Shown: positions 8,255 to 61,868 of the stretch, piece after piece
Layout: the number at the start of each line of letters is the position of its first letter
How positions within the stretch are numbered: the stretch's first letter is position 1
Assembly (NCBI GenBank): GCA_000004695.1
Contig: CM000152.2
Location: 256,001 to 320,000 of the forward strand
Source: Dictyostelium discoideum
Lineage: Eukaryota
DNA: 64,000 nt
Direction of reading: 5' to 3'
The notes under the pieces: generated by a model
Databases searched by the model: none
What the model saw: only the letters and a program-made list of their open reading frames with translations
Told to the model about the DNA's origin: nothing
Made by a program: the position numbers and the translations under genes

Positions 8255-14651
<6,397 letters not shown>

Positions 14652-24165: not shown

Positions 24166-26713
<2,548 letters not shown>

Positions 26714-48396: not shown

Positions 48397-49683
48397 TTAA
48401 ATGACTTTGAATTTATTTTTAGCTTCAAGAGCTTTTACATGCCATACGACAATGTTACCATCTAAACCAGAGGTACTGAAATCAGAGACGACACCACCTA
48501 CACTCTTGAATGGAACGATTGAAGTAATACAATTTTGATGAACGGTTGTTAACTTTTTATCGGCAGATTTTGATTCACCAAGGTCTACTTTATTTTGGAA
48601 GAGTTTACGAGCAGAGGTTTCAGAGCCAGCGGCAGCACCACCTTCAGAGGCCTTATCCATTTCACCAGAATATTTCCAACCGTTTTGATTAGTGATTAAA
48701 AGTGGAGCACAATCGTAACCAACACCGGCGATAGAGTTTTCAGTGATGTAAAGGAGATCACGTAATGGTAAATTACGAACTCTGAGTTTTTCGATGGTTG
48801 GTGGATTGGTTGAAAAGTTTGCAACGGCAAAGACACCATCGTGTGAGGAGTAAGCCAAGGTACTACCGGATGGGGACCATTTGAGGGCATGGACCCATGA
48901 GGCGCATTGGTCAAATTCAAAGACTGGTTCACCAAAAGCGACTTCACCGTATGGACGAGTGACACTACGACCATCGGCTTTCTTTATGTAGGCGTCGAAT
49001 ACTCTAACCTTGTAGTCAGAGGATGAGGTTGCCAATAATAAATTGTTTGGATGCCAGTCAACCTTTAATACGGTTGATTTATGCTTCTTGATATGATTTG
49101 ATGCCCACCAATCATGTTCCTCTTCAAAGAAACAAATACATACCAATTTGGCACCAGTTGCAACAGCAAATTTGTTTTCTTGTGGTGACCATTTAACATG
49201 AGTGGCTGCTCTATTAATACGAAGTAATACTAATACTGGTTTCCATTGACCATCTTTAAATGTCCAAACGTATGCATTACGATCTTGTGATGATGTTAAA
49301 ATACGATTAGTTTTTGGTGCCCAATCAATTGATGTAACAAGTTGATCATGCTATTAAAATTTAAAATATTTATTTAAAATTAAATATTTGTTTTTTTTTA
49401 AATATATATATACATTATATATAATTTTAATTATAAAAATAAATTAATTGGTTAGCATTATTAAATTTTTAATCATATATTATTCTATATTTTATTTTAT
49501 TTTATAATAATACTCACTTCAGCTAAAACATGTTCAACAACCCATGAGGTTCCTTGTTTGGCATAAATGTGTACTTCATTATTATTTGGGCATAAAGCGA
49601 CTCCTAAAATTATTTTCAATATTTAAAAAATAAAATAAAAAATAAAATAAAAATTTTATTAGTATTTAATTTCTTTATTATTC

Positions 49684-51279: not shown

Positions 51280-51680
51280 ATTAACAAATACTATATAGGT
51301 TGATGTAAAAAAGAAAAAAAAAATAGTAATAAACGGAATAAAACTTTAAAGAATAAAAAAAAAAAAAAAAAAATTAAAAAAATAAAAAAAGATTAAAAAA
51401 AAAAAAAATATACATATATCTTATGTATAAGATATAAAAGTTTATTCGTTTTTGGTTTTTTATCTTTAAAAATTTGGACTATTTTTTAAATAAATATCTA
51501 AATTTTAGGCACAGAAAAAAAAAAAAGACAGAGGAAAAAACTGCTTAAATAATGGATTTTTGTGAAAATATGTCTATCCTTCTTCCCCTCCCCAACATAA
51601 AGTATCAATTATTCACTTCAAACACTTGTTTTTTTTCTAATTTTGTTTTTGGACTTGGAGTGTTGTCGTACTTCCAGCAT

Positions 51681-51769
51681 TTATTTTTGATGGCTTTGTT
51701 CTTCAAGTTCCATTTCTTCATCGTCATCATCATAGTCACAACCATAATCATCACCATCACCATCATCAC

Positions 51770-51826
<57 letters not shown>

Positions 51827-51871
51827 CATAATCATCACCATCATCATCATCATAATCATCACCATCATCAC

Positions 51872-51902
<31 letters not shown>

Positions 51903-53046
51903 TTTATTATAAACATTATCATAATAATAGTAATCATTTTCACTTTCATCTTGGTATTGTTGTTGTTCCATTTTTATTTGATTTTTTAAATTTGATTCTA
52001 TAATTCTTTCAGAATTTATTAATTTTAATAATGAATTTGGTGGTTTTTTAAAATGATCAATTGGTTCTAAAGTTGAATCTTTTCTTTTAAAATGATTTAA
52101 AGCGTCAAATGTTAATTTATTAATTCTAATTGGTTGATAAGAGATTGCAAAAGAGTTTGCGATATAAGGTTGATTCGAAGAGATTCTATTGAAAATAGTG
52201 GTTACTAAAGATGTAATTGATTCTTGATTTGTTAAATCTGCAAATTGATAACTTATTTTCAATTTCTTTAAAACTATTTCCAATTCTTCATTTTCAATAG
52301 CCATTAATTCATTTAAGTCCTCTTTTGAACCTATAACTGTAATTTTACACATTGAATAATACTCAATATCAATTTCACTCTCTAATAAAAATGATTTTAT
52401 AAATCCCCAACTTTCTCTACTAGTTATATCAAATAAACATATTATAAAATCAAATTCTTTTTTTTCAAAATAATCAACATCACTATCATCACTATCATCA
52501 CTATCATCATCACTATCACTATCACTATCATCACTACCATCACCATCACCATAACCATCACCATCACCATCACCATCACCATCACCATCACTATCACCAT
52601 CACCATCACCATCACCATCACCATCACCATCACCATCATCATCATCATCATCATCATCATCACTATCATCATCATCACTATCATCATTACCACCATCTTC
52701 TTTATTATCATTTACTTTTTTGTTATTATCATCATCTACTTTTTTATTACCATCTACTTCTTTATTTGAGATGAATTTAGATGTGGATATTCTGAATGTT
52801 TTTTTAAGTTAGAATAAATTATATTTTTATTTTTTTAATTGTTTGTTATATATGAGTGTGTTTATATAGTTACATATGTAGATTATATTTTATTTTTGCT
52901 TCTGTGACTTTGGTTATTTGAGAATCTGCATATGCATAACTGAATTTTTGACGGTTTAATACAGAAGGGTGAGAATAAAGTGCATTTGAAAGTGTTGTTT
53001 TTCCAGTTCCTTTATCACCAATTATTAAAATATTTAGATCGCTCAT
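51681..53046 (-). CDS. Atypical small GTPase-like protein with an Asp/Gly (DG, polyD) low-complexity insert of about 150 residues; 2 exons (~52871-53046; 51681 to ~52805)
   Basis: Exon 1 encodes MSDLNILIIGDKGTGKTTLSNALYSHPSVLNRQKF... (P-loop GxxxxGKT), with a GTAACT donor at ~52870. Exon 2 starts after ...acattcag and encodes ...NKKVDDD...(DG/D)n...KKEFDFIICLFDITSRESWGFIKSFLLESEIDIEYYSMCKITVIGSKEDL...(a Ras-like ...YDITsreSF... and NKxD-like SKED), then a second acidic tail. No DTAGQ switch-II motif is evident. Confidence 0.55.
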
Positions 53047-53086
53047 ATATATAAATATGAACATGAATAATTAGTAAAATTTTTTG

Positions 53087-53119
<33 letters not shown>

Positions 53120-53380
53120 TGAAAAAAAAAAAAAAAAAAAATTAAAAAAAAATATGACATTGTTTATTTTTAGATGTCAAAAAAAAAAAAATATCCGCCT
53201 CATCCCCACTTTATTTTTAAATTAATCATTTTAAAATATTATATTAGATTTTTTTATTTTTTTTTTATTTTTTATTTTTTATTTTTATTATTTATTTAAA
53301 TAAATATTATTATTTTTTTATAGCACATATTTTATTCTTGTTTTTTGATTTTATTTTTTTTTTTTTTGATTTTATTTTTT

Positions 53381-53989
53381 TTAATGTAAAACTAATGCAC
53401 CAGTATTGGTGTAACCACTTGGACCAAATTTAGATTGATAACATCTTGGACAATAAATTAAACCTTCTTTTTCACTGTATTGACCACTTACTAAGTTTTT
53501 ATTACATGAGAAACAAGCGAAACAACTAATATTTATTTTATATTTTATATTTTTATTTTTTGATTAATAAATTTTTTTTTTTTTTTTTTGATTTTTATTT
53601 TTGAAAATAAATTGAAATAAATAAATAAATAAAAAGTACATACGTCTTATGCCAATCACGAGAGTTATAAACTTTAAGTTCATTAAAGTATGCTTTCTTA
53701 CCACATTTTGGACAATTGGTTGGGAATAATTGAACTTTAACTTCTTCAGTTGGTGTTAAAAAAGTTGGAGGTGGGGTTGGTTCGACTGGAGTTGTAGTTT
53801 CAACTTTTGGTGCTGGTTCAAAACTGTCTGCAACAACACCACCACCTCTGTAACCTGCTTGTCTAAATAATCTATCATAATCCTATTATTTGTTTTTGTT
53901 TTTGTTTTTGTTTTTTTTGTTTTTATTTTTTTCATTTAAAAAATTTGTTATTTCATTAGTAAATAATTGTTTTAAAATTCTTTTTTTTT

Positions 53990-60045: not shown

Positions 60046-61868
60046 ATGAATACAATTAAATATTTATTATTAATAATTTTAATAATAAATTTATTAATAG
60101 TAATTTCAGTAAATGGTAATCAACTACAATCACAAATTAATCAATTTAGTTATTCAAATGTTACAATACCAAGTGAAAATTCGGATGATCCATGTTCATT
60201 TTGTACAGTAGGAAATGAAAATAATTATTATTGTCCATCACAAAAAACATGTATTACCGATTTAAATAGTGGTAATAGTAGTTGGCCAACTTGTAAAGGT
60301 GGTTATTGTAATTCCGATTCATGTCAATGTTATGCTCAATGTATGAATACAATTTGGCCATGTAGTAATACTGTCGTTGGTGATTTAATGTTAATGGCTG
60401 CTTATGGTGTATTATTAGCATTTGGTGCTAAATTCATTAGTGATGGTAGTGAAGGTTTAATGGAAGTAAGTTTTTAATAATAATAATAATAATAATAAAT
60501 TAAAATATGAAAAATATTAATATTAATTTTTGTATTTTTTTTGTTTCTGTTTTTTTTGAAAAGATTTTAGATCCAGGTTTAATTGGTGGTTTAGTTTTAC
60601 CAATTCTTTCAGCATTACCAGATGCAATTATTATTGTAGTTGCAGGTGCATTTGGTAGTAATCCACAAGCACAATTAAGTATTGGTATTGGTACATTAGC
60701 AGGTTCAACAATTATGTTGATGACAATTCCATGGTCATTAAGTTTAATACTTTCAAGATGTGATATTAGAGGTGGACAATCAGTTGATGGCACATTAACC
60801 AATAAGTTTAGTTTAACAAAAACTGGTACAACAGTTGATGATGATACACCAACCAATGCAAAAGTTATGATTTTGACAAGTATTAGTTATTTAATTGTTC
60901 AAGGTGTTGCATTTGCATACCTTAAAGATCCAGATAGTGGTAAATCTGTTGAAAAATGGTTTGCATTGGTTGGATTTATTGTGTGTTTTAGTTTGATGGC
61001 TGCATATTGCACCTATCAAGTAATTTCACCAAAATTACAAGAGAAAAAAATGACAGAAGCAAAGAGAAGTTATCTTCAAAAACGTATCATTCATCATTTC
61101 ATTCATAATTTAACAATAAAAAGAAATTTATTCCAAAAGGGTGATAATACTCAATCGCAATTAATTACTTCTGATCAGAATGGTAATGGTGAAAATTCAC
61201 CATTAATTTCAAATGAACATAAGAAATTACCAGTTGATATTAAAGCAATGGGTTTAAAATGGAAAAAGAATGCTCATGAACAAGCTATTCAACATCAACA
61301 ACAAGGTAGTAGTAATGGTGAAACTTCAATTCAAGTTGACGAAAATGATGAAAAAGAAGAAAAAGAAGAAGGTCCAATTAACAAGAAAAAGATTGCATTA
61401 CAATCTGCTGGTTATTTATTACTAGGTACTGCAATGGCATCAATTTTCTCTGATCCAATGGTTGATGTTATCACTAGTTTTGGTGAAAAATTAGATATTG
61501 GTTTATTCTATATCTCATTTATAATTACACCATTTTGTTCAAATGCATCAGAATTAATCTCTTCTTTAATTTTCTCTTCAAAGAAAAAGAAAGCAAATTC
61601 ATCACTATGTTATTCAGCTTTATATGGTAGTGCAACTATGAATTCTACACTTTGTCTTGGTATTTTCTTTGCTTTAGTATTCTTTAGAAATTTGACATGG
61701 GAATTCTCTGCTGAAGTTGTTTCCATCTTATTTGTTGTAGTTTCCGTTGGTCTTATAGGTTCAACTCAAAAAACTATGAAAACTTATTTAGCACCAATTG
61801 TATTATCTTTATATCCATTATCTTTATTATTAGTTTTCTTATTAGAAAAGTTTGCAAATTGGCAATAA
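60046..61868 (+). CDS. CaCA-superfamily cation/Ca2+ exchanger-like membrane protein (two alpha-repeat-like segments) with Cys-rich extracellular N-terminal domain; 2 exons (60046-60465; ~60564-61868)
   Basis: Exon 1 encodes a signal peptide plus a Cys-rich ectodomain, ends ...SEGLME, and is followed by GTAAGT. The ...gaaaag acceptor leads to ILDPGLIGGLVLPILSALPDAIIIVVAGAFGSNPQAQLSIGIGTLAGSTIMLMTIPW, an alpha-1-like G(S/T)NxPE-type repeat. Later ...FYISFIITPFCSNASELISSLIFSSK is alpha-2-like. About 10 TM helices surround a hydrophilic loop. Confidence 0.7.

Follow-up and report, generated by a model that had tools for sequence, protein, structure and literature searches.

In animals, CENP-M is a constitutive, structural and non-switching subunit of the CENP-H/I/K/M module in the inner kinetochore (CCAN, for constitutive centromere-associated network); the human protein is wedged between CENP-I, CENP-H/K and the CENP-L/N dimer (PMC9235857). 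CENP-M has a Rab-like fold from which the switch I and switch II signatures have been lost; the human protein cannot bind GTP, and it binds CENP-I (Basilico et al. 2014, PMC4080450). According to the same study, the kinetochore role is constitutive, distant members of the family keep a P-loop, and CENP-M proteins are recognised by the loss of DxxGQ with an invariant Leu at the position equivalent to Q61 of Ras. These authors also proposed that hydrolysis was lost first and nucleotide binding later (PMC4080450). For Dictyostelium discoideum, CENP-M is among the reported CCAN subunits (H, I, K, M, L, N, O, P, S and X; 2022 review, PMC9252888), and van Hooff et al. (2017) assigned DDIS008194 as its CenpM (PMC5579357). 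Here, we analysed a stretch of 64,000 nucleotides of D. discoideum DNA (hereafter the window; contig CM000152.2, positions 256,001 to 320,000, G+C content 22.9%). A gene on its minus strand, at 51681-53046, encodes a protein of 427 amino acids (aa) with a P-loop at its N-terminus and long acidic repeats. This locus is very probably the AX4 gene for the CENP-M orthologue, a Rab-derived scaffold that would not act as a switch.

The spliced product and the entry Dictyostelium_discoideum_DDIS008194_CenpM (CenpM.fa, Dataset EV1, van Hooff et al. 2017) agree at every residue. The gene has been known as D. discoideum CENP-M since 2017, and the finding is real but ordinary. Its main value is a correct annotation; the Rab-derived pseudo-GTPase nature of the family and the P-loops of its distant members have already been described. 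A prediction made earlier from the DNA letters alone (the original prediction) had recognised a non-canonical protein derived from the Ras superfamily, which agrees with a Pfam Ras score above the gathering score and with the motif losses reported below, and had missed the specific identity, a CENP-M orthologue.

The gene has two exons, with the ATG at 53046-53044 and the TAA at 51683-51681; the limits of the coding sequence had been correctly placed at 51681-53046. From this ATG, the frame starts with MSDLNILIIGDKGTGKTT... and, if unspliced, stops at a TAA at 52872-52870. Splicing 53046..52874 to 52791..51681, across an intron with GT at 52873 and AG at 52793-52792, gives an open reading frame (ORF) of 427 aa. 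The intron that had been proposed at 52806-52870 (65 nt) fails on each count: it lacks GT-AG ends, the spliced length is not a multiple of three, and a stop follows right after ...NLHM. The features of the gene are the following.

52874..53046, minus strand: exon 1, 173 nt, aa 1-57 plus 2 nt, with beta1, the P-loop, alpha1 and a segment of switch I length, to ...KYNLH
52792..52873, minus strand: intron, 82 nt, GTAAC...TTCAG, phase 2, in-frame GT-AG, yielding the 427-aa ORF
51681..52791, minus strand: exon 2, 1111 nt with the TAA stop (51683-51681), aa 58-427
52996..53019, minus strand: Walker A (G1) motif GDKGTGKT, aa 10-17, by motif reading
52773..52787, minus strand: G3-equivalent STSKF, aa 60-64, where beta3 ends, by hhalign to Rab1A and a 34-sequence alignment
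52476..52754, minus strand: low-complexity acidic insert, aa 71-163, in the beta3-beta4 loop, by composition, Tandem Repeats Finder (TRF) and isolate comparison
52095..52475, minus strand: second half of the G domain, aa 164-290, by Pfam Ras, alignment to a custom CENP-M hidden Markov model (HMM) and an AlphaFold2 (AF2) prediction of orthologue P0001
within this second half, minus strand: beta4 FDFIICLFD, then an ID..YY motif and alpha5, by sequence and alignment
52317-52328, minus strand: G4-equivalent SKED, by alignment
52230-52244, minus strand: G5-equivalent FADLT, by alignment
52098-52124, minus strand: C-terminal motif INKLTFDAL, by sequence
51942..52094, minus strand: C-terminal extension, aa 291-341, a predicted helix kept within the D. 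discoideum complex and absent in D. purpureum and P. violaceum
51684..51941, minus strand: acidic tail rich in Tyr, Asp and Gly, aa 342-427, with (GAT)n and GATGGT as coding repeats

Conservation among other dictyostelids, which had been suggested as a check, was found. Orthologues are present in a D. discoideum-labelled isolate (P0001, locus L001), in Dictyostelium purpureum (P0002 = XP_003285394.1/F0ZD76, locus L002), in Polysphondylium violaceum (P0005 = KAF2070026.1) and in three further isolates of the D. discoideum complex (L004-L006). An exon 1 of 173 nt and a phase 2 intron at the same codon characterise all seven orthologous gene models examined; this intron position is shared with the isolate ACTFIR, D. 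purpureum and the three further isolates (L004-L006). Between AX4 and ACTFIR, the ratio of non-synonymous to synonymous substitutions (dN/dS) is 0.12 over 244 core codons (dS 0.114, dN 0.0137), and the core evolves under purifying selection. The two halves of the protein are joined in one real gene, made of exons 1 and 2, as shown by the conserved position and phase of the intron in the seven gene models and by this dN/dS across both exons.

We then compared profiles in both directions. In the forward direction, a profile built from the D. purpureum protein and the window fragments was searched with exhaustive HMMER against 1.84 billion representatives; word-indexed protein searches had returned two orthologues only. 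The dictyostelid orthologues came first, followed by P0006 (E=2.3e-11, 60 bits) and then P0009; P0025 and P0031 were matched as well, interspersed with Rab-like proteins whose E-values were about 1e-5 or weaker. All four of these proteins belong to Pfam CENP-M, with scores of 84, 94, 123 and 170 bits. Moreover, P0006 matches the PDB structure of CENP-M 4p0t at 3e-10 and carries the P-loop GMPKSGKT, and the cluster of P0009 contains Acanthamoeba ACA1_135600. For the reverse test, the published orthologues, with Dictyostelium left out, were combined with P0006 and P0009 into a CENP-M HMM. This model gave 55.7 bits to the D. discoideum core, 48.2 to the full protein, 57.1 to P0002 and 59.8 to P0005. 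Among more than 30 Rab-like controls, the best reached 35.8 bits, with Rab1A at 19.9 and HRas at 8.1. At the level of profile similarity, the reciprocal likeness to CENP-M thus exceeds that to the other small-GTPase families tested. As regards the published record, CenpI (DDIS008819), CenpL, CenpO and CenpS of D. discoideum are present in the van Hooff dataset, and the text of the Tromer 2019 preprint does not mention CENP-M. The iterative search of Basilico et al. had retrieved a D. purpureum hypothetical protein (gi|330794657; PMC4080450), which could not be resolved to XP_003285394.1 (P0002).

The motifs of the G domain point to a non-canonical protein. The Pfam Ras model gives 31.9 bits to the full protein and 39.5 bits once the insert is deleted (model positions 2-160 of 162; gathering score 21.6), the test with the insert removed that had been proposed earlier. 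The best PDB sequence matches are weak and Rab-like (EhRabX3, Rab27 and Rab35). A canonical G1 had been read at the N-terminus, and it is there: the product begins with MSDLNILIIGDKGTGKTTLSNAL, which carries GxxxxGK[ST]. GxxxxGKT is kept in 7 of 7 dictyostelid sequences, as GSSRTGKT in D. purpureum and GLPRTGKT in P. violaceum. A Ras-like second half (FDFIICLFDITSRESWGFIKSFL...KITVIGSKEDL) is also present as described. The two motif losses that had been noticed both hold in the alignment to Rab1A, where STSKF stands opposite DTAGQ and SKED opposite NKCD. DxxGQ is replaced by STSKF in D. discoideum, STSSF in D. purpureum and STSNI in P. violaceum, with both Asp57 and Gly60 of DxxG lost (S..K). 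At G4, SKED lacks the Asn and keeps the Lys and the Asp, with the pattern [ST][KR]xD across dictyostelids. The SAK of G5 is replaced as well (FADLT opposite ETSAK; ADL or SNL in dictyostelids). No CAAX, CC or CXC prenylation motif was found in the protein, which ends with ...EEMELEEQSHQK, whereas the Rab-like matches in the alignment end with CC or CXC. GxxxxGKT, STSx[FI] and [ST][KR]xD are unchanged across the dictyostelid set compared. Further downstream, INK[LI][TL]FD[AT]L is invariant in Dictyostelium species, and P. violaceum has ITPNLLLLDTT. INKLTFDAL and ITPNLLLLDTT resemble by eye the Nematostella/Branchiostoma motif, [ST]P.LL.D.T, the HMM alignment ending just before it; in CENP-M this motif marks the C-terminal segment (around L163 in human) that helps to bind CENP-I.

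The structure was predicted with AF2 for P0001, which is 97% identical to AX4 in the core, from a 34-sequence alignment covering Rab-like and CENP-M proteins (a 4-sequence alignment gave a mean predicted local distance difference test score, pLDDT, of 40). The pLDDT was 86-94 over beta1, the P-loop and alpha1, 81 for beta3, and 81-97 from beta4 through alpha5. It was mostly below 60 in the insert, with values below 50 at residues 93-108 and 126-130, and below 50 at residues 34-49 (switch I region) and in most of the tail. This confidence pattern places the insert in the beta3-beta4 connection, the site of switch II and alpha2 in Ras. Together with the Pfam Ras match and the Foldseek result below, this model confirms a Rab-like small-GTPase fold. 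Against the PDB, Foldseek returned Rab, Ral and Ras structures together with CENP-M chains at about 1e-7 (7pkn_M at rank 5, 7qoo_M at rank 7), the highest TMt listed being that of the CENP-M chain 4wau_A (0.72). Foldseek was considered as a means of discriminating CENP-M from Rab and rejected, because structures of both kinds were found at about 1e-7 and the fold alone cannot decide membership.

Four sets of known proteins can be compared with this product. With human CENP-M (4P0T/4WAU; chain M of 7QOO and 7PKN), it has in common the Rab-like fold, the loss of DxxGQ, a hydrophobic residue at the Q61-equivalent, the absence of a lipid-modification motif and the presence of D..[FY][FY] ahead of beta5, with a Foldseek TMt of 0.65-0.72. 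Neither the glycines of the P-loop nor any part of the alpha1-beta2/beta2 segment is left in human CENP-M, which does not bind GTP (PMC4080450), whereas the Dictyostelium protein keeps GxxxxGKT, [ST]KxD and a segment of switch I length, and adds the acidic insert of 93 aa and about 140 aa of C-terminal extension. A second set is formed by the CENP-M proteins that retain a P-loop (Capsaspora, the Acanthamoeba ACA1_135600/P0009 cluster, the metagenomic P0006, Branchiostoma and Nematostella), which are the best non-dictyostelid matches of the dictyostelid profile. They have G..G.GK in the P-loop, T[KRH]xD at G4 in several cases, and a C-terminal [ST]P.LL.D.T like ITPNLLLLDTT of P. violaceum and INKLTFDAL of D. 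discoideum. They differ by a short 'LPLP' beta3-beta4 linker, by the lack of the beta2-region residues and by PF11111 scores of 84-170 bits. In the same family, Mortierella CENP-M (van Hooff dataset) is likewise interrupted by a long low-complexity sequence, which follows the beta3-equivalent and precedes beta4; this insertion is Pro/Ser/Thr/Ala-rich, without repeat-encoded acidic sequence, and represents an independent event, which indicates that the beta3-beta4 loop tolerates insertions within the CENP-M family. Finally, Rab1A, Rab27, Rab35 and the Entamoeba tandem pseudo-GTPase EhRabX3 (5C1T) share with the Dictyostelium protein the fold, G1 and an FDIT..SF signature in beta4/alpha3. Unlike Rabs, the Dictyostelium protein lacks DxxGQ, the Asn of NKxD, SAK and a Cys prenylation motif at the C-terminus, and its switch II helix is replaced by an acidic loop that is predicted to be disordered.

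The acidic sequence is less extensive than first described. A tract of about 150 residues made of Asp, Gly and Ser only had been announced; such a tract exists, with a real size of 73 residues (aa 91-163) at 96% D/G/S, and the whole low-complexity insert amounts to 93 residues (aa 71-163). The repeat unit is not a hexapeptide, as had been written, but a hexanucleotide, (GATGGT)n, which encodes the dipeptide (DG)n; (GATAGT)n and (GAT)n add (DS)n and (D)n. Coding by gat/ggt hexamers and gat runs was correctly seen, and TRF finds arrays far beyond chance at 52473-52674 (period 6, 33.7 copies, score 250) and 51718-51902 (period 3/6, score 244). The poly-Asp C-terminal end (aa 342-427) was likewise confirmed, with 48 Asp among 86 residues. 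In D. discoideum, STSKF is followed by a beta3-beta4 loop of 106 aa (D+E 0.50, D/G/S 75%). This loop measures 106, 70, 75, 42 and 93 aa in five isolates of the D. discoideum complex, 24 aa in D. purpureum, where it is Ser/Thr/Asn-rich, and 20 aa in P. violaceum. Asp and Glu make up 24-50% of the loop and 37-45% of the tail in these five isolates; the loop has 4% in D. purpureum and 30% in P. violaceum. The repeat type also differs by isolate, being (DG)n, (DS)n or, in ACTFIZ, N-rich. The tail varies in length and composition among isolates and is absent outside the D. discoideum complex. The large acidic insert described as unusual is thus real, but it is a hypervariable, microsatellite-encoded loop; D. 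purpureum and P. violaceum lack the tract, which therefore does not represent a conserved domain. Many triplet runs of at least 4 units occur in the window, of which 52 are (AAT)n, 15 are (CAA)n and 13 are (GAT)n; six (GAT)n runs fall inside the CENP-M gene. Repeat expansion by replication slippage is typical of the repeat-rich AX4 genome. The simplest reading of the insert is a replication-slippage expansion in a permissive surface loop.

Several observations weigh against the assignment to CENP-M. The residue at the Q61 position of Ras, F64, is hydrophobic (Phe in D. discoideum and D. purpureum, Ile in P. violaceum) and not Leu. The dictyostelid proteins hold about 22-25 residues beyond the CENP-M profile in alpha1-beta2/beta2, a Rab-like length, so that they look more Rab-like than other CENP-M proteins. 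The Pfam CENP-M model, PF11111 (gathering score 25), does not match the D. discoideum protein even at E<=10, and scores 12.9 bits (E=0.07) on P0002, below the gathering score; this miss reflects the reach of the model, not a biological property of the protein. The alignment by hhalign of the dictyostelid profile with human CENP-M alone gave no signal, and CENP-M sequences that bear a P-loop had to serve as intermediates for the link. In the van Hooff dataset, the CenpH and CenpK files hold no D. discoideum entries, and a literature search on the Dictyostelium protein found no experimental localisation or CENP-I binding data. A Pfam Ras score that passes its threshold where Pfam CENP-M does not, the top PDB sequence matches (EhRabX3, Rab27, Rab35) and the retained beta2-region length, missing in CENP-M proteins, could all be expected from a lineage-specific, divergent dictyostelid Rab-like GTPase outside the kinetochore, its likeness to CENP-M coming from shared Rab ancestry and convergent motif loss. 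We regard this as unlikely, because the dictyostelid-free CENP-M profile outscores every Rab-like control by about 20 bits and CENP-M is the top non-dictyostelid match among the 1.84 billion representatives. The shared D..[YF][YF], [ST][KR]xD, hydrophobic Q61-equivalent and C-terminal LL.D.T-like motif also speak against it, as do the lack of a CAAX or CC prenylation motif, unlike the Rab-like matches, and the published orthology assignment.

If the protein is a CENP-M orthologue, its biochemical state can still be read in more than one way. A guanine nucleotide might be permanently bound to a hydrolysis-dead scaffold, an evolutionary stage on the way from a Rab to the human pseudo-GTPase, which is empty. 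A full Walker A motif in 7 of 7 dictyostelid sequences, the guanine-specificity Asp kept in [ST][KR]xD, the retained segment of switch I length and the order of losses proposed by Basilico et al. (PMC4080450) would suit such a protein. However, Asp57 and Gly60 are both replaced, SAK has become ADL or SNL, the switch I region is predicted at a pLDDT below 50, and conservation of the P-loop could be purely structural, which makes permanent binding possible but doubtful. A function has also to be weighed for the acidic insert and tail, which might bind histones or other basic proteins or mimic DNA, compensating for missing CENP-C/CENP-T linkers: acidic tracts occur in all five D. discoideum-complex isolates, and CENP-C, -T and -W were not identified in D. 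discoideum according to the review (PMC9252888). But these tracts shift freely in length and composition between isolates, from (DG)n or (DS)n to the N-rich loop of ACTFIZ, are absent in D. purpureum and P. violaceum, and are encoded by pure microsatellites in a window where triplet repeats are common throughout, and such a function is improbable. As for the gene itself, the 427-aa protein was absent by exact look-up in a collection of 15 billion proteins, and word-indexed searches never returned it either, as might happen if exons 1 and 2 lay on different transcripts or if the locus were a decaying pseudogene. This can hardly be credited, given an intron identical in position and phase in seven gene models from at least four species or lineages, a dN/dS of 0.12 across both exons, a P-loop in exon 1 and a G domain in exon 2 that make one fold only when joined, and a call of the same 427-aa product on DNA identical to the window (L003 12013-13378). 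The failed exact look-up had also suggested that the gene is unannotated in AX4, which is refuted by the van Hooff entry and the L003 gene call. The disagreement of the look-up with this call and with the 2017 listing looks like a database inconsistency, of which low-complexity filtering may be the cause.

For the CENP-M orthologue of Dictyostelium, we propose the following scheme. The protein would descend from a Rab-like ancestor, of which it keeps the small-GTPase fold, and would act as a scaffold that binds CENP-I without cycling as a switch. As in the human CCAN, it might stabilise CENP-I and bridge to CENP-H/K and CENP-L/N; a kinetochore function in Dictyostelium is inferred from this analogy. 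The Asp/Gly/Ser tract would be a slippage-prone coding microsatellite that expanded in a solvent-exposed beta3-beta4 loop in place of switch II. This acidic insert would be tolerated rather than required, and the poly-Asp tail would be a feature of the same kind. The range of 20-106 residues in this loop among close relatives makes it a clean case of coding-microsatellite expansion at a structurally permissive site. Among the CENP-M proteins compared, those of dictyostelids resemble a GTPase most (GxxxxGKT, [ST]KxD and a beta2-length segment), and they offer a convenient test of whether nucleotide binding persists after the loss of catalysis. Judging from motifs, it is conceivable, albeit rather unlikely, that Dictyostelium CENP-M is a "living intermediate" that would hold a nucleotide via Walker A, [ST]KxD and the segment of switch I length, with neither hydrolysis nor switching. 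If so, a subunit of the inner kinetochore would have gone on binding a nucleotide, as a structural cofactor, long after the transition from Rab to CENP-M.

We also looked at the genes around this locus. Directly upstream lies a gene with a LIM domain (53391-53536, minus strand, and upstream), whose last exon ends with ...CPRCYQSKFGPSGYTNTGALVLH* (Pfam LIM, 36.5 bits) and whose product has 182 aa in relatives (L001 4751-5692, L003 10729-11682). Downstream is a WD40 beta-propeller gene with a large exon at 48397-49146 (minus strand), a Pfam WD40 match and a product of 369 aa in relatives, which we take to resemble the Arp2/3 subunit ARPC1. This LIM/WD40 neighbourhood is kept in all the isolates of the D. 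discoideum complex examined; in D. purpureum, the upstream gene differs (GATase/SIS). Between the CENP-M and LIM genes, the 5' flank at 53075-53190 is made up of sense-strand T runs of about 20-35 nt, separated by short unique segments. Long T runs of this kind are typical of Dictyostelium intergenic and promoter sequence.

The isolates labelled D. discoideum or D. cf. discoideum (L001, L004, L005 and L006) are themselves heterogeneous. In the CENP-M gene, ACTFIR differs from AX4 by a dS of about 0.11, and ACTFIZ has an intron of 124 nt, an N-rich loop and a different C-terminus. The divergence of ACTFIR and ACTFIZ seems large for one species and suggests cryptic species within 'D. discoideum'.

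Finally, some other ORFs and repeats of the window were observed. Within the CENP-M gene and at its edge, the repeats are crossed by long ORFs that use another frame or the other strand, with poly-Ile or poly-Met/Val products (51552-51989, plus strand; 51605-51949 and 52442-52711, minus strand); these are by-products of the GAT/GGT repeats and not genes. Elsewhere, very long perfect triplet arrays were found at 10410-10508 ((AAT)33, plus strand), 24388-24501 ((AAT)38, minus strand) and 14454-14558 ((CAA)35, plus strand), of which at least those at 10410-10508 and 14454-14558 lie inside long ORFs as poly-Asn and poly-Gln tracts. A 453-aa ORF at 60507-61868 (plus strand) has an exact match only in Logan raw-run assemblies and none among the named AX4 proteins; a larger gene with several exons may include it as one of them. 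The window is AX4 DNA, as four of its single-exon ORFs match AX4 proteins exactly, namely DDB_G0295725, DDB_G0278093, 6-phosphogluconate dehydrogenase and DDB_G0278103.

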